Source: a virus
Lineage: Duplodnaviria; Heunggongvirae; Uroviricota; Caudoviricetes
Reading direction: 5' to 3' (one strand)
Length of the DNA: 25,422 bases
Virus record (IMG/VR): IMGVR_UViG_2574180238_000002
A model generated the notes under the pieces. The model was given only the letters and a program-made list of their open reading frames with translations, did no database searches and was not told the origin of the DNA. The position numbers and the translations under genes were made by a program. Below are positions 3,789 through 25,422 of this stretch, one piece after another; within the stretch, counting starts at the first letter, position 1, and the number at the start of each line of letters is the position of its first letter.

Positions 3789-3945
3789 TTCTTCCCACTC
3801 CGCCACATCGCATTCAGATATTTGTTGTCATTAACAGAACCGAAACTCTTTCTCTTAAGCAATTCCTCTCTCGATGGCATTGGCTTTACGCGTTGGCGAA
3901 TAATCATTTCTGCCGGAAGAATGCCGGGATTGTATGCAAGTCCTC

Positions 3946-4236
3946 TCATGATTTACTCTCCACGAACTGGTCAATAGCCATGCTAAGTGACATACCTAAA
4001 GTTTCGATATGCTGCTGAATATCCTGTAGCGTCTGCGCCTGAGATAACAGGATTTCACGGTTACATAACTCTTTAACCAGATGCTCAAACTTGCTGTAAT
4101 AACCGATACGGCTTAGTGTTTCTTTCCCTGCATTCTCACCTTCTTTGATAATTCCTCTTTCGCTAAGAATCAGGTCGTGTTTGGTTCCGGTAATAACGTA
4201 TTTTCCGAGGTCGATGTTCAGCTTCATTGTTTTCAT
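3946..4236 (-). CDS. hypothetical prophage protein
   Basis: 96 aa from ATG at 4236 ([12 protein letters not shown]...) with AGGAA RBS. Confidence 0.45.
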
Positions 4237-4246
4237 TGTTAATTCC

Positions 4247-4540
4247 TCAGTCATTACTGATAGCGCCATAGCGTGAGCGGTAATTACGCAGGCGCGGGTC
4301 AATTTCAGGGAAGTGGGTATATGTGGCTTTGCGGAATGGTCGGATTGATGTCTGGTAAATTCGCTCGCGTTCTTCTTTCTCTGCGAGCCATATACAATGG
4401 CGAAATTCCTTTTCCTCTTTCGTTTCCTGCGGTAGCGACATTATCCGGTCGTAGTTTTTTCTGAATTTATCCAGCACCTCCGATACGGAATTGCCGGAAC
4501 AGCGGCGCGGGTCATCCGCACTATACAGAGGCGCTGGCAT
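4247..4540 (-). CDS. hypothetical protein (uncertain)
   Basis: 97-aa ORF, charged composition, no clear SD; sits at the presumed deletion junction just upstream of the gp20-like gene. Confidence 0.3.
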   Translation of the reverse strand: MPAPLYSADDPRRCSGNSVSEVLDKFRKNYDRIMSLPQETKEEKEFRHCIWLAEKEERERIYQTSIRPFRKATYTHFPEIDPRLRNYRSRYGAISND

Positions 4541-8674: not shown

Positions 8675-8795
8675 CCTTGATGCCTCACCAGTTGGGTGGA
8701 ATGGCATCGTAACCTACTGGATAAATACTCAATAGTACCATTTCTGTATGCAATCACATCATGGTTGCATCATATCATTCGTCTGGAGCAATGAA

Positions 8796-11685: not shown

Positions 11686-12075
11686 AAAAATCACCTAACT
11701 GTTTATTTTGAAGAGCATTGTATCATCAGATAGCCGCACTTTCACTCCCATCAGATCACCGTCAGAAATTATCATAAGCGCCAGTTCATCATGTGCAATT
11801 GCGTGCAAACAAAATATTCACTGCAGAGAGATTAAGTAGATTGATTCTACTGGGTTGGCATGAGACAAAACTGAGACACAGAAAGCTTTGCACTGGATTG
11901 CAAGGCTTTGTGCTCTCCTGTGGATGTGTGTCTACATGTTTGAAGATTGTTGTGCCGTATTTGTGACATACGCATGACAACATCATGCATCAACTTTCTG
12001 TTTGTGCCATCAACTATAGCTTAGTGAATGCGGTTAATGCTTGCTAAAACAGATAGTTATGATTGGTGCTACAGA

Positions 12076-12121
12076 TTCGTAATGCGAAGGTCGTAGGTTC
12101 GACTCCTATTATCGGCACCAT
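12076..12121 (+). other. partial tRNA-Thr 3' segment (anticodon loop to CCA): central att site of the tandem array
   Basis: ATTCGTAATGCGAAGGTCGTAGGTTCGACTCCTATTATCGGCACCA matches the 3' 46 nt of tRNA-Thr(CGU) as remembered; upstream bases do not form the tRNA 5' half, so this is not an intact gene. Confidence 0.7.
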
Positions 12122-12726
12122 CAAGAAAATCAATAACTTAGCTTAACTTCTCTAAGAAATTGTATCTTCTGTTATCACTTACAAACGCCTATACGTTGTT
12201 ATGGGCTTTGGTAGTGTAACACGTATGGGCGAGTAGTTCCCAGGCTCAACCTCGTAACAAGTTCCTTTGAAGCTGGAAGACGTGCCACCGTCTCTAAACC
12301 TTCTACCAAAACTCTTAGCAAGATGTTCCACACCTGGCGCGGTGTCCAATGATGCTACACGTCGTGAGACGTTGCAGAGGATAAACAGGCTAAATGATGG
12401 GAAGAGTTTTAAGTGCAATAGTGGATCAAAGCCCACCTCTTCAAAACCTAACTTGATCGGGAAAGAATCAAGCTCTAGCACGGTTTCGTCCACCGGAGTA
12501 CAACGGGTGCCTGATAAGAGAAGAACTGCTAAGACTTCATAGCTTTTGTGAAAAAGCCCTTTTTAGTGGATACGCCTACGGCGCTTATTTTTTGGTATAA
12601 CCATCAAAGGCGCTTTATGGCTCCTATTGTCTTGAAAATGTATCTTTACTTGTATTGTGTTTTATGCGTAGTCTCCCTGTGTAGTATGTAACTTGTTAAT
12701 TTTCATATGAATACAGAGGCAACACG

Positions 12727-12879
12727 ATGAAAAACATTGCAGCTATAAAACGTAATAACCGCAAGATTCACGCTCGTAAGTTCCTGTCTACGCCAGAAGG
12801 AAAAGCCTGGCTAGAGCGTAAACAGAGAGAGAACGAAGAAAGAAAACTCCTTAGTGAGTTGAAATGGCTTAAGGATTGA
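12727..12879 (+). CDS. small basic protein (50 aa), uncertain
   Basis: MKNIAAIKRNNRKIHARKFLSTPEGKAWLERKQRENEERKLLSELKWLKD; not in the ORF track (below its length cutoff); followed by a long hairpin. Confidence 0.3.
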   Translation: MKNIAAIKRNNRKIHARKFLSTPEGKAWLERKQRENEERKLLSELKWLKD

Positions 12880-13429
12880 ATCACCAGTAGGCGCATAACA
12901 CATCCAGCGATCAAAGATGTGTTTATGCGCCTGATAGTGAAATTATTAAAGTTTTTTAGTTAATGTAGCCATTGCATGAACGATGATCGCTAGTGAATCG
13001 ATTTTATCTCGAGGGGTAAAATAGATGAGGTATATGATGGTAACAATTACAGCTAAAGTAATTGTGGTTCTGCAGGTTTTTAAAATGGATAAGATAAAGC
13101 GCATAGATACCCCCTATTGATTTAACAACAATAAGGTATCATTTATTTTTTATTGCATGCAATGTGCAAATTTTCACATATAATAGCTTACTATTCACTT
13201 TGCATGGTGTCAACAAGATGATGTGTTGTTTTGTTTGATTTGTTCAAGATAATATTTCATTTTCTCATCTATATAACTTGTGTTTTAGATAATTTCACTA
13301 ATTGTAAAAGTTACGTATTGCTTAATAGCTGCCTTTTTATCTGAAATCGGCGCAAACGTGATCAATGTTTAACGCGAAGATCAGCGGCGTCAGGTCCACG
13401 CAGCGACAATTCTCAAATATCAGGAGGCA

Positions 13430-13981
13430 TTACGCTTCCTGCTCTTTCTTGATACGTTGCACCGTCTGTGTGCTGACACTGAAATCTTTTGCTACGCTCC
13501 GAATTGATCCACCATTCGCGAGAGCGGCAACAATTCCCGCTCGATCAATTGCTTTTCCATTACCACGTTTTGCTATACGTCCAGCGGCCTTAGCTGCGGC
13601 GATCCCCTCACGTTGCCGCTCAAGCATCATTTCACGTTCCATTTGTGCCACTGCTGCAAGCACTGTGAGCATCATATTCCCTGCGGGAGAGTTCTTCCCT
13701 GTCTTAAAGTCTTCTTTATGGAAATGCACAGACACGCCGCGCTCTGTTAATTGCTCAACCGTTGCCAGAAGGTCGGCTGTATTACGGCAAAGGCGATCAA
13801 TACTGTGAACATGCACAACATCACCTTCCCGCACATAGTTCATCATTGCCTCAAACTGTGGGCGCTGAGTGTTCTTGCCTGACGCTTTATCTTCAAAGAC
13901 TTTATCAAGAGTTACTCCAGCTAATTGACGGTCTGTGTTTTGTTGCACAGTCGATACCCTAATGTATCCAATATTAGCCAT
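13430..13981 (-). CDS. serine recombinase (resolvase/invertase family)
   Basis: MANIGYIRVSTVQQ... with the catalytic Ser context, DRL.R motif and C-terminal HTH (GGSIRSVAKDFSVSTQTVQRIKK); ~183 aa, typical of small resolvases/invertases; RBS 9 nt upstream of ATG at 13981. Confidence 0.8.
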   Translation of the reverse strand: MANIGYIRVSTVQQNTDRQLAGVTLDKVFEDKASGKNTQRPQFEAMMNYVREGDVVHVHSIDRLCRNTADLLATVEQLTERGVSVHFHKEDFKTGKNSPAGNMMLTVLAAVAQMEREMMLERQREGIAAAKAAGRIAKRGNGKAIDRAGIVAALANGGSIRSVAKDFSVSTQTVQRIKKEQEA

Positions 13982-14507
13982 TTTCATTTTCCTTCTGTGT
14001 TGATTTGTGTGTAGTGATTATTGATCGTGTTGATTAGGTGTGTAAAGGACTTTTTTCACTACGAAATTCGAAGGTTTTTAGTGTGGTGATTTAGCCTGCT
14101 TTATCACTACACGTCTTGCATGAGAATCATGTAGTTACATTTTGGTAAAATTAGCAAGCTATTAAATAGTGTGTTTATTTTGAAAAAATAATTTTTTGTT
14201 GCATTAAAGGAAACTTGTTCGACAAATAATAGATTGATTTTTAATCAACAATTTCTGATAGTGCTCTGTAAGCCGTATTACACAAGGCTTTGCGAAAGTG
14301 ATGTAAAAGTGAAGAAAGCTAACATTGCACTTTTTAAGCTACTTTTCATTGGATTTTTACGTAGGAATTACACAGGGATTAATCATCAATTACATTGAAT
14401 TTAAGCCTGTTTTAGATGTTTAATTTTGGTAGCAAGAAACACTTTTAGAAGATCATTGCACAGATGTTATGTGATAAATGGATGTAACGGTAGGTCACTG
14501 TGAACTA

Positions 14508-14644
14508 CCCCCACAGAATTCTGTTATCCTTAACTTTTAAAGAAATATGCACCCTAACAGAAAACTGTTACCCCAACCCTAACAGAATTATGTTAGATAC
14601 CCCCACAGAAAACTGTTAGCCACCCCTACAGAATTTTGTTACCT
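14508..14644. repeat. array of five ~23-bp iterons, each a TAACAG-N4-CTGTTA palindrome preceded by a C-run
   Basis: Cores at 14513-14526, 14557-14570, 14582-14595, 14605-14618, 14628-14641; four of the five start 23 bp apart. Confidence 0.65.
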
Positions 14645-14756
14645 ATTAGATCAACTATCAAACTACAATTAAATTATCTTTTATAAATTCTTTTATCTTT
14701 AAAGAATAATTAAGTGATACCCGTTAGGGAGTCTTCGACTATCCCTTAATCTATTG

Positions 14757-15033
14757 GCATTCGCCAGAACCTTGCACAAGTTAGAGTGTTAGTCGTTAGA
14801 CTGCTTGTCATAACACATAGTTTTTGTTTGTTGATGTTAGTTAGTAGATCTATGTTCGCTAATGCCGCTCACAACGAATATGTAATCTACTATGTGCAAA
14901 TAGCCTACGGCTTGCGTAAGGCTAAATAGTCTATGCGCTGTGCGCTTCAATAGTTCCATTGATGAGGCTTACGCCAATCTAACGATCATCAATCATCTAA
15001 AATAAATTTCTTGTGCAATGTTCTGGCGAATGC
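14757..15033. repeat. 24-bp inverted-repeat pair flanking a 229-bp segment
   Basis: gcattcgccagaaccttgcacaag (14757-14780) versus reverse complement of cttgtgcaatgttctggcgaatgc (15010-15033): 23/24 identity. Confidence 0.55.
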
Positions 15034-15339
15034 AATTAGAGTAGCGTTACCCCTTTGGGGATGCTAACGCATAACTATAGATCAACCATCAAACAGACAA
15101 AAAAGAAAAATATGGTTTAAAGATGTTAGGTAGTAGATGAGATTCTACCGCTTAAATCAAGCCGTAGGCGAGCTAAACAGCCTCTACATAAGGGAATGTA
15201 TTGTATTTATCAAAACCTCGTCAGAGGGCGTTTTAGAGCGTTTTAGAGAATAAGGAAGAATAGGAGCACTCTTAAGAGCACGAATTGCTAAGAAAAATTA
15301 TAACACACTGAAAATGATCAATATTTTTATGGCTAGGGG

Positions 15340-15368
15340 TTGACAAAAGCTTTTAGTCGTGGTAAAGT
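15340..15368 (+). promoter_or_regulatory. candidate sigma70 promoter for the 15492-17800 operon
   Basis: TTGACA (15340-15345), 17-bp spacer, TAAAGT (15363-15368). Confidence 0.4.
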
Positions 15369-15491
15369 AATATTAGGGACAGAAAACATTCTTATCCTCT
15401 AAGTAATTAAACCAATGCACCGCACTTTGAAGCCCAACAAGGCTTGCAAGGTGTTTTTTCTTTTAACCAAATAGAATAAGGAGGCTAATTA

Positions 15492-15668
15492 ATGAAATAT
15501 TTTACTCCACAGGATGTAGTTGAAGCCTGGAAACGTGGTGAGATTAATCGTTTTAAAGTAAGGATGAACAGGAACACAGCGCGACGCTGTGGTTATCCAG
15601 AGCGTGAAAAATGCTTTGACGATGCACTAAAAATTATTGATGAACTGCGTAAGGCAGAGAAAGAATAA
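15492..15668 (+). CDS. small protein (58 aa), unknown function
   Basis: Strong SD AAGGAGG upstream of ATG; MKYFTPQDVVEAWKRGEINRFKV...; first gene of a co-directional operon. Confidence 0.5.
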   Translation: MKYFTPQDVVEAWKRGEINRFKVRMNRNTARRCGYPEREKCFDDALKIIDELRKAEKE

Positions 15669-15689
15669 TAACAGGAGAAGGAGAAAACT

Positions 15690-15860
15690 ATGAGCGAAAC
15701 TACAGAAAAGAAAAGACAACCACGCACTTGCTTTCATATTCCTGATGAAGTATTTCAGGTGTTGTTTAAAGAAGCCAGAAGTAAACGTATCACTGTTACA
15801 GATTACATTCTTGATATGTTGAAAAGAGAGGCTGAAACACTCTCAAACAAAAGCAAGTGA
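15690..15860 (+). CDS. small ribbon-helix-helix-like DNA-binding protein (56 aa)
   Basis: SD AGGAGAAGGAG; sequence RTCFHIPDEVFQVLFKEARSKRITVTDYILDMLKRE fits a beta-strand then two helices as in CopG/Arc/ParG-type RHH proteins (by-eye secondary-structure pattern). Confidence 0.5.
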   Translation: MSETTEKKRQPRTCFHIPDEVFQVLFKEARSKRITVTDYILDMLKREAETLSNKSK

Positions 15861-15913
15861 TTTTTATCACCATAGTAGCGCCGTAGAGCGTGATTACATC
15901 AAGGAGATTTTTA

Positions 15914-16483
15914 ATGATTAATGAAGAACAATTTGTAAAAGTTCCTATGTGGATTCTAAAAATAAGCCAAGTAAACGGACATAAATTTACAGATAGTGCT
16001 AAAAACCTTTACTGCTATCTGAGAGGGTTTGATCGTGCATTTCCCTCTTACGCTAAGATAGGCGATGTTTTTGGCATAACACCAAGAGCAGCAGAAGAAA
16101 GGGTTAAGAAATTGCTCGAAATGGGATTAATTATAAAAGATGCACGACCAGGAAGCTCTAACCTTTATCGAGTGCTTGATATTCCAAAAGGAGAATCATC
16201 ACTACCTGATCCTTCTGAGAAAGAAGACGAATCTAATGAAATATTGAATGTTTCCGAAATCATCGTTGAAGAAGAAACACAAGAGCCAGAGTTCCCTGAG
16301 CGGCCCGAAATTTTTACTTGGCTTCTTTCCCTTGATAAGAAGAAACCACCGCACGAAGAAACAGAAGATTTTGTAAAACGAGCATTAGATTCAAAGAATA
16401 TCTATCTTTGTGAAAATGATTTTGACTCTTTGATAATTGATCTCAAAAGTGAGAGCACAATATATGATTCACTACCCTTCTAA
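15914..16483 (+). CDS. predicted winged-helix DNA-binding protein with acidic C-terminal tail
   Basis: ATG at 15914 with AAGGAG RBS; N-terminal ~90 aa has a wHTH-like pattern (..AKIGDVFGITPRAAEERVKKLLEMGLI..); C-terminal half highly acidic. Confidence 0.55.
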   Translation: MINEEQFVKVPMWILKISQVNGHKFTDSAKNLYCYLRGFDRAFPSYAKIGDVFGITPRAAEERVKKLLEMGLIIKDARPGSSNLYRVLDIPKGESSLPDPSEKEDESNEILNVSEIIVEEETQEPEFPERPEIFTWLLSLDKKKPPHEETEDFVKRALDSKNIYLCENDFDSLIIDLKSESTIYDSLPF

Positions 16484-16492
16484 GGAGAATAA

Positions 16493-16750
16493 ATGACTTA
16501 TAACATCACTATAGGAAACAAAACTATTGAAATAACTGAAAGCGGATACAACATTTTAAAAGCTATTTTGGACATAGAGTTTTCACCACCGACAGTGGTT
16601 AGCTTTTGTAGTTTAGGCGGCTACAGCGCACAACACGTAAATCATTTTACATCGTTCGGTGTGCTGGATTATGAAGGGATTAACAGCACTACATTTCGTC
16701 TTTTGAAATTAAACAAAGATTTTGAATTGTTTCTCACAAACAATCAATAA
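16493..16750 (+). CDS. hypothetical protein (85 aa)
   Basis: AAGGAG RBS; same-strand operon context. Confidence 0.5.
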   Translation: MTYNITIGNKTIEITESGYNILKAILDIEFSPPTVVSFCSLGGYSAQHVNHFTSFGVLDYEGINSTTFRLLKLNKDFELFLTNNQ

Positions 16751-16847
16751 CAACAGATCGGGCAATACATATGGCAAATGCATTTATGGCGATATTCATC
16801 GTAACAATGGCGTCCAGTTTTTATAATCCACATAAAAAGAGGGAAAA

Positions 16848-17231
16848 ATGGGAAGAAAGAAAAAGAACAACTTAAAACGTATTGAAAAAAACAGTAATTT
16901 CAATTCAAAAAGACAACGTCCACCGACACACACCAATAACGAAATTCCAGGGGAAGAGATAATCTTTATTCTTGAAACAGAATCCCCTGAATTAAGTGAT
17001 GAAGAATTAGAAATAATCCAATCAATGCCAGGCGTTTACTTTCGCCCAAGAACAAGAAAACAAACTATCATTTCTGATGGCACTCTGAAACGTTGGCAGC
17101 TTTTAGGGTTTAGCTCCTATCATCATTTTTTGGGATTTAACGCTTTCAATAATTGTGTAGGTGGTGCATCGGAAGTCGATCTGATGGCTCATTTAGAAGA
17201 TACATTAGCTTCTAACAAACGTTCTAACTAA
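16848..17231 (+). CDS. hypothetical protein with basic N-terminus and acidic middle (127 aa)
   Basis: RBS AGAGGG; N-terminal Lys/Arg-rich stretch followed by an acidic segment. Confidence 0.5.
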   Translation: MGRKKKNNLKRIEKNSNFNSKRQRPPTHTNNEIPGEEIIFILETESPELSDEELEIIQSMPGVYFRPRTRKQTIISDGTLKRWQLLGFSSYHHFLGFNAFNNCVGGASEVDLMAHLEDTLASNKRSN

Positions 17232-17246
17232 TAAAATGATGGGTGT

Positions 17247-17492
17247 ATGTATAAGCGCCCAATGAAAATATTCAAAAAAGGAAAAATAATGATTGGCTAT
17301 ATTCAAGAAACACAATTATTTCAGATGATCCTGTCTGATGCAAAAAACTATGCAGAGTTAATTCGGCTGGCAAAAGAAACAGAAGACTACGAAGCATTAG
17401 AGCGTTACCGTGATGAAGTGCTGACGCTCAAGACACCTTTTAACATCGTATTGAATATGATTAATGATGCATTACAAGGAGAATACGCATAA
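17247..17492 (+). CDS. hypothetical protein (81 aa; alternative start at 17289)
   Basis: ORF with better RBS (AAGGA) before the internal Met at 17289; stop overlaps the next start (ATAATG). Confidence 0.45.
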   Translation: MYKRPMKIFKKGKIMIGYIQETQLFQMILSDAKNYAELIRLAKETEDYEALERYRDEVLTLKTPFNIVLNMINDALQGEYA

Positions 17493-17800
17493 TGGAAGAA
17501 GATATTAGCAATGCAATGGAACAACTTTTAGAACTGACTATCTCACTACAAACAAGAATAAATCAAGCCTATTCAGATTTATGCGATTACACGCTCTCTC
17601 AATGCGTTATTAGCTTAATGAAGGTGAATGTAAGCCTTGACGATTTTATCTCTCTTGGGAGCGATTTAGAGCTATCAGAGGACGATGCAAAACAGTGTAA
17701 TCAAATCATCACAGACATCGCCACCACGTTAAAGGTTGCAAGTGAAGAGATTCAGCAATTAGTAGATGATTTAGCAAAAAGTGCTATTTTCTCTAAATGA
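17492..17800 (+). CDS. strongly acidic small protein (102 aa)
   Basis: AAGGAG RBS; about 19 Asp/Glu versus about 6 Lys/Arg by count. Confidence 0.5.
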   Translation: MEEDISNAMEQLLELTISLQTRINQAYSDLCDYTLSQCVISLMKVNVSLDDFISLGSDLELSEDDAKQCNQIITDIATTLKVASEEIQQLVDDLAKSAIFSK

Positions 17801-18642
17801 TAATGAAAATTATTTGCATTTATAATGATTTTGTTATATAATAATTTTAGGGGTAGATAAAAAGATTTTAGTTGGTGTTAATCCTTCTACTGTCATAAAT
17901 CCCTGCATATGGAAGGTGATAGCCTCAAAGGTTGAGTGGCATTAACCTCTAACAAATATTACCTTCCATCTCTCAAGAAGTTTTAGAATAATCATAACTC
18001 CCTCTTTGATTGTTGATTGTTTCTACGTTGTGTTGATGAATGTTGTTAGGCATTGTGCTTAATTTTGATAAAAGCGGGTAGGTGTTATCTCCTTGCCCTT
18101 CCCGCTCTTATTTTTCATCTATGCTTATCCTAAAGCTCCTTATTTTGTCAGAAAACATTAAAGAGCCTTACACTGATAGTTATATTTTATAACTATTTAC
18201 TAACATCATTAAACTATTATTTAATGACAGAAGTTAGTAACAGAATAATCTATTAAGTTGTTGTCAAAAACAATCATCTGCATAGCGTTAGCCGCAAGCA
18301 GAGAGAGTTTAGCTAAGAATGGTGCAATAAACTTTGGAAATATTGATAGCAAAACGGGTTTTATAGAATGCGGATCTATAAGCTTTGGTTGTAAAAACGA
18401 TTTTCTGAAACGGTAGATTACTGTTGGTGTAGTTAATCATTATTAAAAATTTAATCTGTGAGTAGATTGGAATAGTGATTCCTTAAAATCTGACTGGTGC
18501 ATCCACACCATGAAAGATAGCGGTTGGCCACCGCGCCCCGAATAGATATTCCTGATTGATTCCGCATGTTTTCCTAAGAGCATGTTTTCAGGAGTATCTA
18601 TTCACCCTTTAAGCATATCATCAAGTATATTTAAAAAGTGTA

Positions 18643-18671
18643 TTTGCTGATATGTTTAATCCTCTTATAGT
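18643..18671 (+). promoter_or_regulatory. candidate sigma70 promoter for the 18785-23366 operon
   Basis: TTTGCT (18643-18648), 17-bp spacer, TATAGT (18666-18671); weak -35, good -10. Confidence 0.3.
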
Positions 18672-18784
18672 TTAACTTATCAATTATGTAATTGCCCGCA
18701 CGTTAAAGCCCCTTTGCTGGTCAGAATTAACCTCTTACGGCATTGGGGCTTTTTATTTGTCTGGCACTAACAGGAACATTATTT

Positions 18785-18982
18785 ATGAAACAAGAAATGA
18801 TTATCAGCAAAGACGGGGAAACGATGATTGTTAGTGATGAAAACCTCATTAAGGTTGCCGCACTGTTGGGAGTTACTCCCGAAAGTCTTCGTTCTACCAC
18901 TGCTCAATTATTTAAATCGGCTGATGCGGTTAGTCTTGCTGATGCCCTTAAATCTAAAATTAAACAACTGAAAGGAAAATAA
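18785..18982 (+). CDS. hypothetical protein (65 aa)
   Basis: AGGA RBS before ATG at 18785; first gene of the second operon. Confidence 0.45.
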   Translation: MKQEMIISKDGETMIVSDENLIKVAALLGVTPESLRSTTAQLFKSADAVSLADALKSKIKQLKGK

Positions 18983-18986
18983 TCTT

Positions 18987-19370
18987 ATGGCTAACCCATA
19001 TGGAAAATTAAAAGCAGTGAATGCGGATAACTCCCGTTCACGCTGTAAGGTAGTAGCTTACGCTGCTGATCCAGTGCTGCAAGATCGCCTCGTCAAACTG
19101 GCTTCACCTCTCACTGACGATCTTATTGTCGGGGCTTTGCTGAAAGCCGATGGCACCAAAGCAACAACCGCATCTGATATTGCTCACGTAGTAGTTGAAC
19201 CGGCTTATGAAGGACAGGAAAGCGTAGTGGTTGCACATCCTACTTTCGTTATTCTGGCTGAAGATGGGATTGAATTTAACAGCATGGAAAAGGCAAGTGT
19301 TATTGCAAAACTGCAATCTCTCGGCTTTGTAATTGCTGGTTATGAAGAACTTGCGATCCCTACGACTTAA
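18987..19370 (+). CDS. hypothetical protein (127 aa)
   Basis: AAGGA RBS; tightly spaced with neighbours (4-14 nt intergenic). Confidence 0.55.
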   Translation: MANPYGKLKAVNADNSRSRCKVVAYAADPVLQDRLVKLASPLTDDLIVGALLKADGTKATTASDIAHVVVEPAYEGQESVVVAHPTFVILAEDGIEFNSMEKASVIAKLQSLGFVIAGYEELAIPTT

Positions 19371-19384
19371 CAAGGAAAATAATA

Positions 19385-20416
19385 ATGAATGATTTATCAA
19401 CATATTTTGGCGTTAATACTGCGGTAGTAACTCCATTTGCTTATGAGAATGCACTTAATACCCTGATTACTAATCTCGATCTGTTCGATGTGCAATATCA
19501 TACAGAAAACAGCATTCTTCTTACCGACCTGATTGATCAGTTTGTGCAGGTAGCTGGGGAAACCTCGCCTTACGCTCAAAGCGACTGGAACGCCTCTAAA
19601 CGTCAGGAATGGTCAAACAAACTTTTCCAGATGAAACACGTCGGCAGTATTAACGCTGTTACTTCTCGTGACCTGGAACAATACAGCCGCCAATATCCAA
19701 ACCGTTCTGATGCTATGCTGGTAGCGGTTAATGATTTCTCTGAGGCTCATTACCGTTCACACGCAAACCGTGTTGAAGTGGATCTGATTACCGCGCTGCT
19801 GGGCCTGAAAGTTGAATCTGAATATGCCGGACAAGGTGATCTCGACTTCCTCGACGGTCAGGCTAAAACCACGGTACCCGCTATCGACTTTGCATCGACT
19901 ACTGTTAACCCGTTCCTTGCTATTCGTAAAGCGGTGCGCTTACAGAGTGAAAAGCTGGGGTCTGGTCTTGCTGCAAAGCGAACTGGTGTAATTATCTTTG
20001 CTGCTGGCACTGCTGCTGATGGTTTGTCATCTAACCCGCTGATCAGTGACATGGTGAAATATGCAGGCGATGCGAGTGCTACGGCCCTGTTTACCCGTAT
20101 GGTTGATTCTAACCCAGCCTATGACTCTTTCCAGATTGGTGGGATCACTGTTATTGATGTGTCAATGTTTCCTGAGATTGTTGCTCACATCGGAGAGAAC
20201 GGTTTCGCAATTGTTCCGGTAATGGATAAAGCGGCACAGTGTTACCAGCTTCATAGCGGCGTTGGTGTGCGTCATGCTGAGTTAGGTCAAGATGCCGTGT
20301 TGCATCACCAATATCTAATCAAGGATGAATTCCAATTCCCATCTGTGGTTACTGAGACATCTTATCTGCCAGTAAACAACATTCCGCAAGCTATCATCTT
20401 CGGATCTGCTGCGTAA
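19385..20416 (+). CDS. hypothetical protein (343 aa), function unknown
   Basis: AAGGA RBS; no signal peptide or recognisable catalytic motif by eye. Confidence 0.55.
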   Translation: MNDLSTYFGVNTAVVTPFAYENALNTLITNLDLFDVQYHTENSILLTDLIDQFVQVAGETSPYAQSDWNASKRQEWSNKLFQMKHVGSINAVTSRDLEQYSRQYPNRSDAMLVAVNDFSEAHYRSHANRVEVDLITALLGLKVESEYAGQGDLDFLDGQAKTTVPAIDFASTTVNPFLAIRKAVRLQSEKLGSGLAAKRTGVIIFAAGTAADGLSSNPLISDMVKYAGDASATALFTRMVDSNPAYDSFQIGGITVIDVSMFPEIVAHIGENGFAIVPVMDKAAQCYQLHSGVGVRHAELGQDAVLHHQYLIKDEFQFPSVVTETSYLPVNNIPQAIIFGSAA

Positions 20417-20567
20417 TAAAGCGTTAATAGACGATTCCCCATCGGGGCAATAAGGGTAAAGGGATTAACTAACCTGTAGGCGCAAATACAGTAACGAATC
20501 TCTTTGCCCTTTTTGTTTTTCTACTGTCTACAAACCCAAATAAAAATATATATGTGAGAGAAAACCA

Positions 20568-20765
20568 ATGAATACAGAAAACCCACAATCCTTTATTCTT
20601 AAAGCTGTAAAAGAACTGGCAGCTATTAGCGAGGAATCAGTTATAAACACATCGGCGCTTTGCCGCCTTTTAGAAATTGATGCAAATAATGTGCGCCAGC
20701 GTGTCTTTCAGACTGGGTGCAGCACTTTCGAAGCAATTCAATACTATTGCTCTAAAAAACAATAA
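20568..20765 (+). CDS. hypothetical small protein (65 aa)
   Basis: ORF in operon context; weak RBS. Confidence 0.4.
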   Translation: MNTENPQSFILKAVKELAAISEESVINTSALCRLLEIDANNVRQRVFQTGCSTFEAIQYYCSKKQ

Positions 20766-20799
20766 TAAACAACAATCATAATACAGGGAAACAATTAGC

Positions 20800-22641
20800 A
20801 TGTTAGAACTTAACGTCAGCCGCTTATCAAACGTTGTCACCTTCCAGGTTGATCGACCATCATTAGAGAAAGCAAAAGCAGAAGTAGAAAAACTTCGTAA
20901 ACAAATGGCGGCGGTGAAAGATATAGAATTGCGTGTTAAGACACATAAACAATCAACTTCTAAAGCAAAAAAAGACGTAGACGATATTGCTAAAAAGCAA
21001 GCACAGGCAGATAAAGCCAATGCTAAAGCACAATTAGCCGCTCAACGTGTAGTTGCAAGAGAACAAAAAGCCCTGGCAGCACGCAAAGAGAAGGCAGACT
21101 TAAAACTGTTAGACGTTGGATCAAGCATTAGTGCATTGCACCGCCTTTCTGTAGCGGAACAATATAAAGCTATTGCACAGGCTAGAGAAATTGCCCTCCA
21201 ATATGAAAGAGGAGCTATTAGTCTGGCACGTATGAATAGCCAAATGAAACGCCTACAACAGCAACAACGTAAGATTAATGGCAATCGTAACGCTCACGCT
21301 AAAGCCTATGCACCTGTTAAGGGTAGCGGGAGTATTGGCGGCGGTGCTGCGGCTGTTATGCTGGGTGGCTTAGGCGCTGGCGCTACGTATATGGCTATGA
21401 GCAAAGCCTCTGAATTTGTTACTAACAGCTTTGCGAATGCTGAAACGCTGGGTGAATTGTATAGCCGTGCGAAGCTGGGCGGTGTAGACGTTAACCAGAT
21501 GAACAATATTGAGCAATGGGCCTACAAAAACGGCGTTGATTCAATGATGGGGGATCAAGGTAAACGTAAGTATCTCGATCAGATGAAAGATGTGCGTGAG
21601 CGTGCAACCAAAAGCTATGATGAGGCTGAATATGTAGTCGATAAAAAAACAGGCAAAGGTGAATGGAAGGGCGGCGATAGCGGCATCAATACTTTAATGA
21701 ATGAAGGATTCTTAACTAAAAAGGATCTAAAAGACTTTGCTGATAATCCGGCTGGTCTGGTTAGTAAAGCAGTTCAGGGAATGGTGAAGAAAGGCTATTC
21801 AGATGCACAAATCGGTAGTCGTCTGGAAGATCTGGCTGATGATTTGATGCTCACCTCTAAATACTGGACACGCTCCGCTAAAGAAGTGGAACAATCAGCA
21901 CGAGAACAACTAGAATCAGGGCGCTGGGTAACACAGGCACAACAGGAAAGCGTTATTAAATTCCGTGAACTGAATAATGCACTTAGTGGGCTTTCTGACT
22001 CACAAGGGATCGCCTTTGTTGATGGCTTTATGAAATCTCTTGATCCGAAAGTGATTGAAGAGTTTAAAAAGAGCATGGTTGCAATGCTGCCAATGTTTAC
22101 CAAATTAGGCGAGGCTATCGGCGGATTGGTTAACGCCGTAATGAAAACAATCAACTGGCTGATGAAAAACGACGAGAAGACGGAAGCTATTCAGAAGAAT
22201 TTAGGGGATGCACCGCCACTATCTAACGAAGGAATGAAGCAGAATCTTTCTAATCTCACTCCTGATCAATATAAAGGCGCTGGCACCGGAACAACTAAGC
22301 CAGATAACAGCAATTCCCTGGTTAACACTATTAAAAGCTGGTTTATGCCAGAAGAAACGGTAGGTGGGGCGCAGGCTGTAAATCAATACAGTCTCGAAGG
22401 ACAAAACATTGCAAATCTGAAACAGAGTGCAGCACAACAAGCTTTCAAGGCTCCTTCTTACACCTTTGCACCTGTTATTAACTTCAATCCAGAATTACAA
22501 GTAAATGCAGAAGTGCCGCTAACTATCGAATCAGACACCGGACGATTGAGCGAATTTATCGACTTCAAATCAAAGGCATCCTCCGCTGAGTTTAGCAAGC
22601 TATTAACGCTGGGTGTTATGTCAGGCGGGTCAACCTATTAA
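20800..22641 (+). CDS. large coiled-coil protein with Gly-rich hydrophobic segment (613 aa)
   Basis: AGGGA RBS; N-terminal ~170 aa Lys/Ala/Gln-rich heptad-like sequence; GSGSIGGGAAAVMLGGLGAGATYMAM resembles a glycine-zipper membrane segment. Confidence 0.6.
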   Translation: MLELNVSRLSNVVTFQVDRPSLEKAKAEVEKLRKQMAAVKDIELRVKTHKQSTSKAKKDVDDIAKKQAQADKANAKAQLAAQRVVAREQKALAARKEKADLKLLDVGSSISALHRLSVAEQYKAIAQAREIALQYERGAISLARMNSQMKRLQQQQRKINGNRNAHAKAYAPVKGSGSIGGGAAAVMLGGLGAGATYMAMSKASEFVTNSFANAETLGELYSRAKLGGVDVNQMNNIEQWAYKNGVDSMMGDQGKRKYLDQMKDVRERATKSYDEAEYVVDKKTGKGEWKGGDSGINTLMNEGFLTKKDLKDFADNPAGLVSKAVQGMVKKGYSDAQIGSRLEDLADDLMLTSKYWTRSAKEVEQSAREQLESGRWVTQAQQESVIKFRELNNALSGLSDSQGIAFVDGFMKSLDPKVIEEFKKSMVAMLPMFTKLGEAIGGLVNAVMKTINWLMKNDEKTEAIQKNLGDAPPLSNEGMKQNLSNLTPDQYKGAGTGTTKPDNSNSLVNTIKSWFMPEETVGGAQAVNQYSLEGQNIANLKQSAAQQAFKAPSYTFAPVINFNPELQVNAEVPLTIESDTGRLSEFIDFKSKASSAEFSKLLTLGVMSGGSTY

Positions 22642-22688
22642 TCATCACTGTGGGGCTGTTTAGCCCCCTTAAATAAGGATTACAAATT

Positions 22689-23366
22689 ATGGCAATGGGT
22701 CCGTTAACCATTGGTCGCCCGACTGAGGCGAAAATCAACAGCACAAGCAACGATAGCAACGGTAGAACAACCAAAGGGGGTAACGGCTTTGCGATCATTA
22801 CCTCTAATCTCGGCAGTGGTGCAAATGCTGCTTACAATGACTACCAGGCATTATCATTTGATAGCGTGGAATCGACGAAAGTTAGCAGAAATGCGGACGT
22901 TACAAGCTATGCCGTCGAATCAGGATCAGAAGTTAGTGATCATGTTCAAATACGGAATAACAAGTTCACATTACAAGGGCGTATCTCTGAAACCGTATTG
23001 AAGCTCAATCCTGATATGATTAAGAATGCTGGAATTAACGGCAATCGACGTATGCTTATGCTTGAATACCTAAATCAGTTGATGGACAGTCGCCAACCTT
23101 TCCTACTTGTCACTGAGTTAAAAAATTATGACAACGTTGTGTTAGTTGGCATGTCTTACGAAGAAGAAGCAAGCGAAAGCCTATTGTTTACTCTTGATTT
23201 TGAGCAAATCCGTCTTGTCTCTAAAGCAACTACAAGCGCAATTGCGGTAAAAACAGCACCAAATAAATCTGTAGGAGGCCAGGTTAAAATGCAGGTAAAT
23301 ACAACAGAACAGAAAAATCAAAAAAGCCCAGGGCAAGACGTTGTAACGCCAGTATTTAAACAATAG
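22689..23366 (+). CDS. hypothetical protein (225 aa)
   Basis: AAGGA RBS; preceded by a ggggct-gttt-agcccc hairpin. Confidence 0.55.
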   Translation: MAMGPLTIGRPTEAKINSTSNDSNGRTTKGGNGFAIITSNLGSGANAAYNDYQALSFDSVESTKVSRNADVTSYAVESGSEVSDHVQIRNNKFTLQGRISETVLKLNPDMIKNAGINGNRRMLMLEYLNQLMDSRQPFLLVTELKNYDNVVLVGMSYEEEASESLLFTLDFEQIRLVSKATTSAIAVKTAPNKSVGGQVKMQVNTTEQKNQKSPGQDVVTPVFKQ

Positions 23367-23446
23367 CCTTAAACGCCTATGAAACGCTCTGTAACGAGAT
23401 AATCATAAAAGAGGCATCAGCCTATATTGAAGCCTCTTTATTACGT

Positions 23447-24724
23447 CTATAGCGTTGTTTTACGCCTTAAATTTGATTTTTTATTGATTGATAAGCCTTT
23501 CTCTATTTCAGGGTAGCGTAAAAGCTCAATATATTTTTTAAGCTCTATTGGAGAAGCTGCATTTTTGCTATATGTGCGGAATGTTTCTGTATTGCCGCGT
23601 GTATGGCCCAGGAGAAGGGCGATCCTGTCTTCTGGAATTTGATTTCGATCAAGAAGCTGTGCTACTCCGTGTCTCAGAGAATGAAACACTTTCCTTTCTG
23701 TTCCCTTTTCCCCTAAAGCCTTTCGTTTAGCTCTTGTAAATCGTTGTGTATGCCACGTAGAGCGTTTACCGTCAGCACGTTCTGTAATGCTGGCGTGATA
23801 GAACAAAAAGCCATTGTGAGGCTTTTCACGCAGCGACAACACCAACGGAGTGATAAGGTTATGCACAGGCACAACACGTGCCGCAGCTTTCGTCTTTCCC
23901 TGTGTGATTTCAAAACACAGCACACCTTCGATCTCTTTCACATCGTCTATTGTGAGACTTGCTATCTCATTGATCCGCATACCTGTATATAAACCGATAA
24001 GACACAAAGCCGTCATTTCTTTGTTTTCTGCTGAATTACCGGAAAATACTTGCAACACCTGCAATAGCTCTTTGTTAGAAAATGCCTCGTAGCTCTCTCT
24101 ACTTTGTGCCACATCAAGCCTATGCCCTCGCCAGGGGGAGAGCGCCCTTTCTGGCGCATCGTGGTAACGTGATGAAGCTAATTCCCATAGCTGGGCCATT
24201 GGACTGATATAATTTGCAATTGATTGTTGTGAAAGAGTTTTTTGCATGTGTTCAATCCAGCCTGTAACAGTGGTGCGGCTTACATCTTGCAATGCAATAT
24301 CAGGCTTTTTACGGTAGGAGAGAAACATCTCTACCGCTTTTCTTGCCTTAGCTAAAGTGGCTGGCTTCTTCTTCGTGCTGTTAATTGTCAGGTAGATTTC
24401 AAGAATTTTAAGCAATGACGGACACGAAGACGCTGTATCTTGCACTCTGGTAGCTGTTTTGGCGTATTTAGCCTTACTGCGTAACAGTTCCAGCGTGTTT
24501 TCTATTGTGCTGTTTACAGGGGCAACACTCTCCCGTAAGCAATGGTATTCATCTGCAATCTGATCACGCTTTCTACGTGCAACACGAAGATTACTTGTGT
24601 GTAGACTTCTGACAAACGTCCTTTTTCCTTCAAAAAAGGGCTGCATATACACAGGCAGCGTGATCCTTAAATAGTAGTTACCGTAAGAATCACAGATTAA
24701 GTATTGGTTAGGCTTGTATCTCAT
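23447..24724 (-). CDS. tyrosine integrase of the second element (P4-type size, about 425 aa)
   Basis: C-terminal catalytic-domain pattern (..HSLRHG..LLGHT..TFRTYSK.. consistent with the R/H-x-x-R/Y region); GGAG RBS before ATG at 24724 (track ORF extends to a TTG at 24811); adjacent to the tRNA-derived repeat. Context resembles thrW-associated integrases such as IntF of E. coli K-12. Confidence 0.8.
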   Translation of the reverse strand: MRYKPNQYLICDSYGNYYLRITLPVYMQPFFEGKRTFVRSLHTSNLRVARRKRDQIADEYHCLRESVAPVNSTIENTLELLRSKAKYAKTATRVQDTASSCPSLLKILEIYLTINSTKKKPATLAKARKAVEMFLSYRKKPDIALQDVSRTTVTGWIEHMQKTLSQQSIANYISPMAQLWELASSRYHDAPERALSPWRGHRLDVAQSRESYEAFSNKELLQVLQVFSGNSAENKEMTALCLIGLYTGMRINEIASLTIDDVKEIEGVLCFEITQGKTKAAARVVPVHNLITPLVLSLREKPHNGFLFYHASITERADGKRSTWHTQRFTRAKRKALGEKGTERKVFHSLRHGVAQLLDRNQIPEDRIALLLGHTRGNTETFRTYSKNAASPIELKKYIELLRYPEIEKGLSINKKSNLRRKTTL

Positions 24725-24823
24725 AAAATCTCCGGCTAAAGTGTCGGAGCGTTTGTAATGTGAAAATTGATTGTGACGCATAGAAAATGATGATTTTTCT
24801 ATAAGATTCAATCAATTAGTAAT

Positions 24824-24885
24824 GGTCGTAGGTGATGGCATTAACACGAGATTAATCGAGTGTTTTACTCCTATTATCGGCACCA
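24824..24885 (+). other. degenerate pseudo-tRNA / right att of the second element
   Basis: 19-nt exact match to the tRNA-Thr 3' end (ACTCCTATTATCGGCACCA, 24867-24885), plus an upstream 10-nt tRNA-like piece (GGTCGTAGGT, 24824-24833) separated by non-tRNA sequence. Confidence 0.6.
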
Positions 24886-25011
24886 TTAAAATCAAAGAGT
24901 TACCCCATATTTAAATACACCACGTTTCCTCCTGTGCCGTATTTGTGCCATTGTAACCTTGGCAATTCATCAAAATACTGTTCTGACATCAGGCAGTGCA
25001 GGTGCAGACAT

Positions 25012-25422
25012 TTAAGCCAATTGCTGCCGCCATTCTTTGACGTAGTCAATCAGGGCGCGGAGCTTTGGTGCAATATTGCGACGCTGTGGGAAATACAGAT
25101 AGAAGCCCGGAAATTGTGGAAGAAAGTCATCAAGCAGCGATACAAGCTTACCGCTTTCAATATATGGCCTGAAAGTTTCCTGAGTGGCAATTGTTATTCC
25201 TCCGCCGGCAAGAGCCAGCCTCAACATCAGACGCAGATCATTAGTCGTAATCTGCGGTTCAATCGCAAGGTCGAAAGTTCTCCCGTTTTCTTCAAATGGC
25301 CAGCGATAAGGCGCAACCTCCGGGGACTGACGCCAGCCGATACACTTATGGGTATTTCCCCCGGAGGCGAGAAAGCGCTCTCCACGCCCGGCCGCAAGGA
25401 TCAGGACGACGGGGGCAGGCAT
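25012..25422 (-). CDS. LysR-family regulator, C-terminal substrate-binding portion only (possible gene fragment)
   Basis: 136 aa fit the C-terminal half of a LysR-type regulator; no N-terminal HTH region; ORF start coincides with the window edge. Position and size recall yagP of E. coli K-12, but I cannot confirm that from sequence. Confidence 0.6.
   Translation of the reverse strand: MPAPVVLILAAGRGERFLASGGNTHKCIGWRQSPEVAPYRWPFEENGRTFDLAIEPQITTNDLRLMLRLALAGGGITIATQETFRPYIESGKLVSLLDDFLPQFPGFYLYFPQRRNIAPKLRALIDYVKEWRQQLA

Follow-up and report, generated by a model that had tools for sequence, protein, structure and literature searches.

A tandem array at thrW and a possible satellite-like parasite of large lytic phages within it

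Tandem occupancy of thrW is already known, and an array at this site is therefore in itself ordinary. In the E. coli O157:H7 strain Sakai, two unrelated elements, Sp1 and Sp2, follow each other head to tail at the same site (proA-thrW ... yagP). A decayed lambdoid remnant with a pseudogene integrase forms the proximal member, similar to element 1 of the locus described here, while the distal one is P4-like (psu, capsid-size determinant, primase) and has its integrase at the proximal end; the 12.8-kb distal element of our locus (element 2) is unrelated to it and has its integrase at the distal end. In Shigella flexneri, SfI entered a thrW already occupied by SfX experimentally, and the resulting tandem array has an att copy between the elements, the incomer having entered at attL (PMC3306764). 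SfX and SfI are phages that both convert serotype, and their integrases are related and act on one and the same core; here, unrelated integrases act on different portions of the tRNA (46 nt in one case, 20 nt in the other). Finally, the cryptic prophage CP4-6 of E. coli K-12 (intF, ptwF) occupies the same site with its integrase distal, adjoining yagP and a partial thrW copy of ~49 nt, compared with 19 nt in element 2. An identity of element 2 with CP4-6 was rejected, as IntF is 24% identical over 152 aa and the gene content is unrelated.

The window, meaning the whole stretch of 25,422 nt that was analysed, very probably holds two unrelated integrative elements in tandem at a single thrW (tRNA-Thr CGU) attachment site. 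Its features outside the body of element 2 are as follows:

1..713, plus strand: IS1 copy (insA, insB; ORFs 1-276 and 195-698; PF03400 DDE_Tnp_IS1)
712..1485, minus strand: P22-like integrase, truncated by IS1 (PHROG integrase families)
1362..4540, minus strand: excisionase and early-left (ea, anti-RecBCD) genes (phrog_2907; Pfam Ead_Ea22, Anti-RecBCD_p2)
4587..7837, plus strand: two ejection (DNA transfer) genes, gp20-like and gp16-like (phrog_917, phrog_770; PF16928, PF26808)
8748..10613, plus strand: tailspike with a P22-type head-binding domain (tail spike PHROGs; PF09008 Head_binding)
10642..11694, minus strand: O-antigen O-acetyltransferase (phrog_3333; PF01757 Acyl_transf_3)
12075..12120, plus strand: attR of the P22-like element, an exact copy of the final 46 nt of thrW
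12102..12120 and the following T: left att copy of element 2, within the 46-nt copy
24867..24886, plus strand: element 2 att copy on the right, made up of the final 19 nt of thrW and a T
24886..24953, plus strand: native thrW-downstream flank, 100% identical to unoccupied sites
25012..25422, minus strand: chromosomal yagP-like LysR fragment, so annotated in EC195, K-12 and Sakai, outside both elements

PHROG and Pfam families mark element 1 (714-12120) as the remnant of a P22-like prophage. The terminal inverted repeat of IS1 ends at 713, the left edge of the window falls within IS1, and the source contig JJLY01000008.1 (GCA_000627945.1) stops within the same IS1, ~52 nt further left. The truncated integrase keeps residues 1-255 of 384, with the catalytic C-terminal third gone, and is identical at 254/255 positions to its intact counterpart of 384 aa, encoded next to thrW in strain 19451123. 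The ejection genes directly abut the early-left genes, so that ~29 kb has been deleted relative to a complete prophage, and the O-acetyltransferase is a serotype-conversion gene adjoining attR. Element 1 would now be locked in place.

The attachment sites were compared with the 76-nt thrW of E. coli EC195 (anticodon CGT). Of the 3' suffixes of this gene, the longest one present in the window measures an exact 46 nt (12075-12120), and the longest one occurring twice is the 19-mer ACTCCTATTATCGGCACCA, at 12102-12120 and 24867-24885. A T follows both 19-nt copies, making the shared block 20 nt, and the repeat with its flanks is 25/28 identical. Searched with up to two mismatches, the 19-mer matched the window only at these two places, and none of 100 dinucleotide-preserving shuffles of the window held a match. 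The 46-nt attR junction is also present at 7 other loci. Neither ARAGORN nor Rfam detected an intact tRNA within the window. To the right of 24885, the sequence is the thrW-downstream sequence of unoccupied E. coli sites such as that of ATCC 8739 (100% identity). This flank (24886-24953) also resembles the attL and integrase 3' end of P22-type prophages, is ~86% similar to attL of strain 19451123, and terminates in TGTGCCGTATTTGTG, a second copy of which lies at 11951.

An earlier, sequence-only reading had proposed that the P22-like remnant ends in a 46-nt copy of a tRNA-Thr 3' end, and that a second element runs from directly after it to a 19-nt copy next to the integrase of that element. 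It expected the intact tRNA gene left of the window, which would place the gene beyond the end of the source contig in IS1. The exact suffixes identify both repeats as thrW; the 46-nt copy terminates the remnant as proposed, one base to the left of the 12076-12121 given for it, and the 19-nt copy lies precisely where it had been placed. Element 2 accordingly spans 12121-24885, and its integrase (23447-24724, minus strand) adjoins the right copy, 56 nt away. The same reading had invoked sequential integration at the tRNA gene and suggested comparison with strains carrying one element, and such strains exist. Element 2 lies alone between an intact thrW and the same flank in many genomes, as in EC195 (proA-thrW-element-int-yagP'-paoD); in five complete genomes without element 2 at this site, the flank directly follows a prophage that shares the attR arm of element 1. 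Empty thrW sites were found in other E. coli (for example, ATCC 8739), as were arrays of up to four elements. Strain 19451123 is the complete analogue closest to our locus; its order is thrW-int...attR(46 nt)-element 2-further elements, its integrase is 99% identical, and 14 nt separate the stop codon of that integrase from thrW. Sequential integration is thus supported by the thrW suffixes, the native right flank, the single-element genomes and the SfX/SfI precedent.

Mechanistically, each integrase would recombine a tRNA-identical attP core with the 3' half of the tRNA gene, the P22-type enzyme over a 46-nt identity beginning at the anticodon loop and that of element 2 over a 20-nt identity beginning in the T-loop. 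Every integration would restore an intact tRNA proximally and leave a partial copy distally, so that a second element could enter and an array could form. Given its matching 20-nt repeats and intact integrase, element 2 is predicted to be capable of excision.

Either order of arrival yields the same structure, and the order cannot be read from the sequence alone. We nevertheless lean towards element 2 as the first resident, with the P22-like phage later entering the regenerated thrW. Element 2 is distal in every array of prophage and element 2 examined, with at least two unrelated phage arms (two different attR arms abut the same end of element 2, in different genomes), and this fits phages repeatedly entering a site that element 2 already occupied. 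Strain 503025 also counts towards this order: its copy of element 2 is 99.9% identical over the right half, and the match begins at the tRNA copy and covers an annotated tRNA-Thr. It is conceivable, at clearly lower probability, that the P22-like phage came first and that element 2 then entered the 46-nt partial tRNA at the prophage attR. That copy holds the whole T-arm and the 20-nt core used by element 2, and the remnant, heavily decayed by IS1 and a large deletion beside an intact element 2, could be the older of the two. However, the intact tRNA at attL would have been just as available to a second arrival, giving thrW-element 2-prophage, and the SfX/SfI incomer did use attL, the regenerated tRNA (PMC3306764). 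A rearrangement through IS1, in which inversion or deletion took the tRNA-proximal end away so that the array no longer sits at thrW in the source genome, is improbable: IS1 does interrupt the integrase exactly at the contig end and recombination between IS1 copies is frequent, but a simple insertion is more economical, the array still borders the native yagP/pao flank on its right, and thrW adjoins the integrase in the complete analogue.

Element 2 itself, 12.8 kb in length and bounded by the thrW 3' copies, contains the following:

13344..13422, plus strand: stretch resembling the Mt1B1_P17 genome terminus (junction of unique sequence and direct terminal repeat)
13430..13987, minus strand: serine recombinase of the resolvase/invertase family (PF00239, E 9e-39; phrog_125 DNA invertase)
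14507..14644, plus strand: five iterons of 20-23 nt sharing a near-palindromic core, ACAGAAnnnTGT; candidate replication origin
15914..16483, plus strand: Rep-like protein, 189 aa (PHROG replication-initiation families; Pfam)
18987..19370, plus strand: 127-aa protein, weakly homologous to a cement (head decoration) protein and in the corresponding position
19385..20416, plus strand: major capsid protein (HK97 / lambda gpE type)
20800..22641, plus strand: tape-measure-like protein, 613 aa (PDB phi92 gp134, E 6e-22)
22689..23366, plus strand: Dit-like or tube-initiator protein, 225 aa (PF21821, E 1e-27)
23447..24724, minus strand: integrase, 425 aa, apparently intact (DUF6538, SAM-like and catalytic domains)

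The integrase is of the tyrosine type and is annotated at the same length in EC195. The Rep-like protein combines an N-terminal winged-helix domain (HTH_36, lambda-O-like) with a variable C-terminus, and both this N-terminus and the iterons are kept in the diverged variant L010. The 127-aa protein matched a 130-aa phiWec188 protein encoded just upstream of the capsid gene (phmmer E 5e-5 in a 32-protein set), and its cement role was assigned via phi92 gp123. The capsid protein has relatives at 42-49% identity that are named major capsid protein (PF03864), is 21% identical over its full length to that of phiWec188, and weakly matches phi92 gp124 and phrog_29. The tape measure is 26% identical over its full length to its phiWec188 counterpart (E 1e-42) and matched 134 phage records, with 20 of the 20 matches listed being myophage genomes of 131-152 kb. 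The tube initiator shares 49-53% identity with the proteins encoded directly after the tape measure in phiWec188 and Mt1B1_P17. Cement, capsid, tape measure and tube initiator are collinear with their homologues in the ~150-kb lytic Phapecoctavirus/phi92-like phages, and for each the best phage match is the Phapecoctavirus gene in the corresponding position. Pfam, PHROG and other homology searches detected no portal, terminase, sheath, tube or lysis genes in element 2 and left most of its proteins without a family.

A further connection with these phages involves gp053 of the Phapecoctavirus Mt1B1_P17, the N-terminus of which is identical to the N-terminal domain of the element 2 Rep at 104/105 aa (99%). 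This domain is followed by a second HTH and a T5orf172/MUG113-like, homing-endonuclease-like C-terminus, the nuclease-domain matches falling below Pfam cut-offs. By analogy, the layout matches that of the ICP1 anti-satellite nuclease Odn, a chimera of the PLE initiator DNA-binding domain and a T5orf172-type nuclease domain (PMC8263062). The shared domain is 42% identical between Odn and RepA, as opposed to 99% for gp053 and the element 2 Rep. The iteron core occurs five times in the window and not at all in the 151-kb phage genome. The terminus-like stretch is 81% identical over 81 nt to phage positions 150846-150926 and matches phage bases 1-52 at 45/52 (core 34/35); several independent phage records begin or finish at the terminus base, with the sequence present twice. 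The stretch is absent from other variants of element 2.

Of 5426 complete E. coli genomes, 600 carry relatives of element 2, in some cases with another integrase and site, and the same compact synteny is found in Klebsiella. All relatives in IMG/VR are integrated, and neither IMG/VR nor the JGI metagenome contigs yielded an excised (attP) form.

Three kinds of satellite invite comparison. Like PLE of Vibrio cholerae, element 2 is small and integrated, combines an integrase with an initiator of its own and a putative iteron-type origin, and is apparently associated with a large, strictly lytic myophage. No sequence relationship between the two elements was seen, and no capsid or tape-measure protein has been reported for PLE. 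The cf-PICIs are likewise integrated elements of 10-15 kb with their own HK97-type capsid protein. They are defined by portal, protease, head-tail connectors and small terminase, none of which was detected in element 2; conversely, element 2 has tail-side proteins (tape measure and tube initiator) that cf-PICIs lack. P4-like satellites share integration at tRNA genes, and element 2 may similarly carry a copy of a helper packaging signal. No homologues of psu, sid, delta or alpha-primase were found in element 2, and its presumed helper is lytic, in contrast to the temperate P2-like helper of P4-like satellites.

It is possible, though we consider it the lesser prospect, that element 2 is no satellite. 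It would then be a genomic island, either inert or self-contained, or a fragment of a decayed prophage, and would simply have exchanged DNA with phages infecting its host. Recombination between phages and resident DNA does occur, and the lack of a circular or packaged form in IMG/VR or the JGI metagenome contigs, the many unassigned proteins and the restriction of the terminus-like stretch to one variant would all be compatible with this. Against it, the phage relatives are strictly lytic viruses of ~150 kb, without lysogeny, and the compact gene order kept across E. coli variants and Klebsiella includes an integrase, Rep and iterons that those phages lack. Moreover, cement and capsid, along with tape measure (and tube initiator), are retained at 21-53% identity, which suggests long independent evolution rather than recent decay, and the Odn-like chimera is hard to account for unless the phage gains by targeting the element. 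A defence island, unpackaged and with capsid and tail homologues acting as decoys that poison Phapecoctavirus assembly, seems unlikely: the structural homologues are divergent versions of helper proteins, the phage has an apparent countermeasure in gp053, and known satellites such as PLE also shield their hosts, but no element 2 protein matched a known defence family, the integrase, Rep, iterons and phage terminus copy suggest mobility beyond defence, and the idea overlaps, and is compatible with, a satellite.

The point of interest is the second element rather than the array. A literature search, incomplete in its coverage, found no paper on it. With roughly even confidence, we propose that element 2 is a putative satellite-like parasite of large lytic Stephanstirmvirinae phages (Phapecoctavirus and phi92-like), probably of a new family. 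Such an element would replicate from its own iteron origin by means of its small Rep protein and would supply its own capsid, cement, tape-measure and tube-initiator proteins, while the remaining parts of the virion would come from the helper phage.

The array formed by the two elements at thrW is real, was correctly read from the sequence and is ordinary, and the main interest of the locus lies instead in the identity of the distal element. When the 76-nt thrW gene of E. coli EC195 (anticodon CGT) is used as the reference, the longest thrW 3′ suffix in the window is an exact 46-nt copy at 12075-12120; the sequence-only reading, which had placed this copy at 12076-12121, therefore had its length right and its position one base off. 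The longest suffix found twice is the 19-nt ACTCCTATTATCGGCACCA, located at 12102-12120 and, precisely as had been proposed, at 24867-24885, with a T coming next after both copies. These are the only two occurrences in the whole window with up to two mismatches allowed, shuffled windows gave zero matches to the 19-mer, and a repeat finder independently paired 12097-12124 with 24862-24889 (25 of 28 positions identical). Exact alignment thus ties the repeats to tRNA-Thr. Direct repeats identical to the tRNA 3′ end bound element 2, the 12.8-kb integrative element at 12121-24885, and for element 1, the P22-like remnant at 714-12120, only the right end is visible in the window. Each element has a recombinase near one end, namely a truncated P22-type integrase at 712-1485 and an intact integrase at 23447-24724, the latter ending 56 nt before the 19-nt copy that starts at 24867. 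No intact tRNA was found in the window by ARAGORN or by Rfam at gathering scores.

Other genomes supply the remaining states of the site. A synthetic empty site, made by joining thrW to the window from 24886 onward, was found with 100% identity along 330 nt in E. coli ATCC 8739 and other genomes, where the matched segment covers an annotated tRNA-Thr and a LysR fragment; this indicates that the DNA right of 24885 is the native thrW flank. Only full-length 100% matches were used, and a count at coverage of at least 80% was discarded because the flank and the 19-nt core alone make up 83% of the query. Strains with a single element, whose comparison had been suggested, occur in both forms. Element 2 lies alone between an intact thrW and the native flank in many genomes, with the match always starting at window position 12075 (the order in EC195 is proA-thrW-element-int-yagP′-paoD), and prophages with the same attR arm lie alone in others: five genomes contain the complete junction of this arm, the 46-nt copy and the native flank. 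One of these prophages, that of 13C1065T, is a myovirus-type lambdoid, and the int/att module is therefore common to different phage types. GPEC1186 carries thrW, element 2 and then a Vat autotransporter island with a truncated integrase (19975-25528 of its locus, L014), demonstrating that element 2 can be a proximal as well as a distal member of an array. In strain 19451123, thrW is followed by a complete P22-like prophage and the 46-nt copy, then by element 2, a third island and a P4-like element, with yagP′ beyond them. This amounts to four elements on one tRNA site, two of them beyond element 2 at 25549-49600 of the strain's thrW locus (L002); of these two, the first (the third island) has genes for a TIGR04141 protein, a reverse transcriptase and an integrase of 645 aa, and the P4-like element encodes another RNA-directed DNA polymerase.

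Stacked elements at thrW are already known. Sp1 and Sp2 are annotated in tandem there in O157 Sakai, and a tandem of SfI and SfX at thrW was made experimentally by Sun et al., with the incoming phage entering at attL (PMC3306764). The proposal of sequential integration into a regenerated tRNA end is supported by the exact thrW suffixes, the native flank, the empty and single states and these known tandems. The array itself adds little, as integration at thrW is well known to be frequent and the stacking of elements at this gene is textbook knowledge. The native flank has its own peculiarity: 24886-24953 shows ~86% similarity to P22-type prophages at their attL and the 3′ end of their integrase gene, and every "empty" thrW site may carry the scar of an old prophage. 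This stretch ends in TGTGCCGTATTTGTG, which is found again in the attR arm at 11951 (11951-11969), and the copies are possibly arm-type sites of the integrase.

The features of element 1 and of the left edge of the window are as follows.

1-713: IS1, with its inverted repeat ending at 713
712-1485, minus strand: IS1-interrupted integrase, 254 of 255 residues identical to residues 1-255 of the 384-aa integrase of strain 19451123
after the integrase: excisionase, ea and anti-RecBCD genes, then directly gp20- and gp16-type ejection protein genes
beyond the ejection genes: tailspike with a P22 head-binding domain, then an O-acetyltransferase (Pfam families from the source contig)

Ejection proteins, a head-binding tailspike, int/xis and the thrW core are all of the P22-like (Lederbergvirus) type, and the label of a P22-like remnant is upheld by this gene content and by comparison with the complete prophage of 19451123, relative to which ~29 kb is absent, including immunity, replication, lysis, packaging and head genes. 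Residues 256-384 of the integrase are also absent, and the catalytic third of the enzyme is therefore missing. The truncated integrase and the ~29-kb loss together rule out a complete, potentially inducible genome. In this otherwise gutted remnant, the O-antigen O-acetyltransferase (10642-11694) is an uninterrupted ORF of 350 aa, whose product may still modify the host O antigen.

The window is an IMG/VR prophage prediction cut from the draft contig JJLY01000008.1, which stops ~52 nt past the left edge, still inside IS1. As window edge and contig end both lie within IS1, the left cut of the prediction is an assembly break and not a biological boundary. The IS1/int junction was absent from species-representative genomes, and leftward extension via the exact truncated integrase stopped within IS1 on each of the three contigs that it reached, two of them draft contigs and one from Logan. 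By analogy with 19451123, where thrW lies 14 nt from the stop of a 99%-identical integrase, an intact thrW is expected to the left of the window; a rearrangement by IS1 at this end of the array is a possible alternative.

We infer from the two suffix lengths that the integrases target different sub-sites of one tRNA gene. The element 1 integrase would use an identity of 46 nt starting at the anticodon loop, and the element 2 integrase would use one of 20 nt starting in the T-loop, with a predicted attP of ...GTGTTTT-ACTCCTATTATCGGCACCAT-CAAGAAAA... and with the integrase on the side that would become distal upon integration, like IntF in K-12. Exact junction patterns of this excised attP form were unmatched in IMG/VR and JGI metagenome contigs. 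The IMG/VR relatives consist of integrated predictions made in isolate genomes and a single metagenome contig of 46 kb, and neither an excised nor a packaged form came to light in these collections. Element 1 would no longer be able to excise. Element 2, with an intact integrase and matching repeats, could presumably do so, and its excision would restore the junction of attR arm, 46-nt copy and native flank; the predicted junction is the one found in full in five genomes. As to the order of events, the balance tips toward element 2 having integrated first. A P22-type core, which we take to require the anticodon-loop part of the tRNA, would be offered only by the intact gene or the 46-nt copy, and this assumption, combined with the measured suffix lengths, favors such an order. 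It is also favored by the presence of two unrelated phage attR arms adjoining the same element 2 end in different genomes and by strain 503025, in which the right half of element 2 is 99.9% identical and the match to the element begins at the tRNA copy and covers an annotated tRNA-Thr. Finally, the SfX/SfI experiment points the same way by showing entry at the regenerated tRNA (PMC3306764).

The gene content of element 2 is shown below.

13430-13987: serine recombinase
14507-14644: five iterons
15914-16483: Rep-like winged-helix protein of 189 aa, matching phage replication-initiator families
18987-23366: block of structural genes
small genes: several, with products that could not be assigned
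23447-24724, minus strand: tyrosine integrase of 425 aa

The iterons have a spacing of 23-25 nt, with one gap of 44 nt, and share the near-palindromic core ACAGAAnnnTGT; they are conserved even in a variant in which the identity of the adjacent DNA drops to 77-81%. Profile searches of element 2 with Pfam, PHROGs and NCBIfam detected no portal, terminase, protease, sheath, tube, baseplate or lysis genes, and its small ORFs gave only sub-threshold noise against Pfam and NCBIfam. Known RNA families were absent from the whole window at Rfam gathering scores and from 12050-24950 at E <= 0.1, and promoter and terminator scans showed no excess over shuffles. In the middle of the element, a stretch of ~940 nt (17800-18743) has no ORF of at least 60 aa, no RefSeq-relative gene and no Rfam match. 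Among 50,697 deposited phages, nucleotide relatives of element 2 were limited to a few short stretches.

At the protein level, the structural block leads to a single group of lytic phages. When element proteins were compared with the structural region of the Phapecoctavirus phage phiWec188 (a 32-protein set), four neighboring element genes each matched their positional counterpart. The 127-aa protein pairs with the 130-aa protein encoded upstream of the phiWec188 capsid gene (E 5e-5 in the 32-protein set). Full-length similarity links the 343-aa protein to the capsid protein itself (21% identity, E 7e-7) and the 613-aa protein to the tape measure (26% identity, E 1e-42), and the 225-aa protein is 49% identical (E 1e-58) to the product of the gene that follows the tape measure. 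The tape measure, and likewise the Dit-like protein at 53% identity, find their counterparts in phage Mt1B1_P17 too. In phi92 the counterparts are the cement protein gp123, the capsid gp124, the tape measure gp134 and the tube initiator gp135 (PMC13450770), and the 613-aa protein matched gp134 at E 6e-22. The same protein matched 134 phage records, of which 20 spread evenly down the ranking were all myophage genomes of 131-152 kb. In the phage searches, the structural homologues match Stephanstirmvirinae only, the basis for the tape measure being these 20 of 134 records. In Klebsiella, Citrobacter, Cronobacter and Enterobacter, proteins with 42-49% identity to the 343-aa protein belong to PF03864 and bear the name major capsid protein.

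A second connection to these phages runs through the replication gene. A stretch of 355 nt in element 2 (15873-16227) is 98.6% identical to Mt1B1_P17, where it forms the first 105 codons of gp053 (NC_052662.1 20722-21708; 5042-6028 in L015, our excerpt of that genome), and 104 of the 105 amino acids are identical to the Rep-like N-terminus. Beyond residue 105, gp053 has a second HTH_36 domain and then a nuclease-like C-terminus, which matches MUG113 at E 4e-4 and T5orf172 at E 0.04, both below the Pfam cut-offs, and is 44% identical to annotated homing endonucleases of T5-like phages. Full-length relatives of gp053 occur in only a few phages (BI-EHEC, 90%; muut, 76%; inny, 66%), whereas the Rep N-terminal domain and the iterons persist in diverged variants of the element. 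It is therefore simpler to suppose that the N-terminal domain moved from element to phage. All five copies of the iteron core ACAGAAnn[A/C/T]TGT in the window belong to the iteron array, and the 151-kb Mt1B1_P17 genome has none. A comparable protein is Odn of the Vibrio phage ICP1, a nuclease that cleaves the iteron origin of the PLE satellite; its N-terminal domain is homologous to the DNA-binding domain of the PLE RepA, and its nuclease domain is of the T5orf172 type (PMC8263062). The architecture of gp053 is the same, with an initiator-type N-terminus and a nuclease-like C-terminus, and the logic of its putative action would be too.

A third connection is suggestive only. Just 3′ of the serine-recombinase gene, 13344-13422 is 81% identical, over a stretch of ~81 nt, to the junction of unique sequence and the 328-nt direct terminal repeat of Mt1B1_P17, and its similarity to the left end of the phage genome begins at phage base 1. 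Several independently deposited Phapecoctavirus genomes start or end at the same base, with the sequence present twice, and this base is therefore probably the physical genome terminus. It is conceivable, from this resemblance, that 13344-13422 is a borrowed packaging signal. The stretch is given little weight because it is tied to the recombinase module, occurring only in element variants with the same module; it is not a family-wide feature, being absent from the variants L002/L013 and L010 and from the Klebsiella loci. A weak 34-nt match of the distal phage terminal repeat to 17547-17580 (82%, E ~2e-4 in a small search) is possibly due to chance.

The family to which element 2 belongs spans genera and integration sites. 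A search of 5426 complete E. coli genomes for the 18987-24885 block found relatives in 600, including 139 with a coverage of at least 80%, and some have a different integrase and lie at another site; variants exchange the recombinase module and the Rep C-terminus. A Klebsiella locus keeps the compact gene order of element 2, from a small recombinase and a Rep-sized gene through small genes to a 125-aa protein, the capsid, a 62-aa protein, a tape-measure-like protein of 618 aa and a DUF6538 integrase, but lacks the Dit-like gene. On Klebsiella pneumoniae contigs (L022-L024), relatives with this order are inserted between a LysM/peptidase gene and an MFS transporter gene.

Element 2 is none of the named thrW elements that could be identified. 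It is not CP4-6 of K-12, as its integrase is only 24% identical to IntF over 152 aa and the partial tRNA copy at ptwF is ~49 nt compared to 19-20 nt here; nor is it the P4-like Sp2 of Sakai, whose gene content differs. A P4-like satellite is likewise rejected, with no psu, sid, delta or alpha primase-helicase found by Pfam, PHROGs or NCBIfam, and the genuine P4-like neighbors in 19451123 and Sakai look quite different. The cf-PICIs are defined by a capsid module of their own, comprising portal, protease, connectors and small terminase; in element 2, only capsid and cement homologues were detected, and it is rejected as a member. It has the general traits of a satellite in its 12.8-kb size, integrase, Rep-like protein with iterons and only four structural homologues. 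A conserved, compact, integrase-bearing element with a few divergent virion genes common to strictly lytic phages is also unlike a decayed prophage.

The best explanation, which we put at even odds, makes element 2 a member of a new satellite-like family linked to lytic Stephanstirmvirinae, some of which would have an Odn-like countermeasure. With the same evenly divided confidence, the family would consist of undescribed satellites of E. coli and other Enterobacteriaceae that parasitize the strictly lytic, ~150-kb Stephanstirmvirinae (Phapecoctavirus and phi92-like phages). Such a satellite would replicate from its iteron origin and, in an unusual combination, would itself encode not only capsid and cement proteins but also a tape measure and a tube initiator. 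Some of its helpers (Mt1B1_P17, BI-EHEC, muut and inny) would have turned the initiator domain of the satellite against it by making this domain part of an Odn-like chimeric nuclease. Alternatively, element 2 could be an inert island that has exchanged DNA with phages. It could also be a pure defense island, and PADLOC found nothing credible among known defense systems. In the literature searched, nothing was found on element 2 itself, on a Stephanstirmvirinae satellite or on DUF6538 integrases.

If the satellite reading is true, element 2 would be the first satellite of lytic Phapecoctavirus/phi92-like phages in E. coli, as far as found, and a gene set with capsid and tape measure but neither portal nor terminase would represent a novel way of hijacking a phage. 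Phages of this group are widely isolated for the treatment of E. coli and Klebsiella infections, and with a relative in about one in nine complete E. coli genomes, the element could shape both host range and the outcomes of phage therapy. Origin-directed nucleases would then be a recurrent counter-defense and not a Vibrio curiosity, and the locus would offer a second, independent arms race of the PLE-ICP1-Odn type in a tractable model host.
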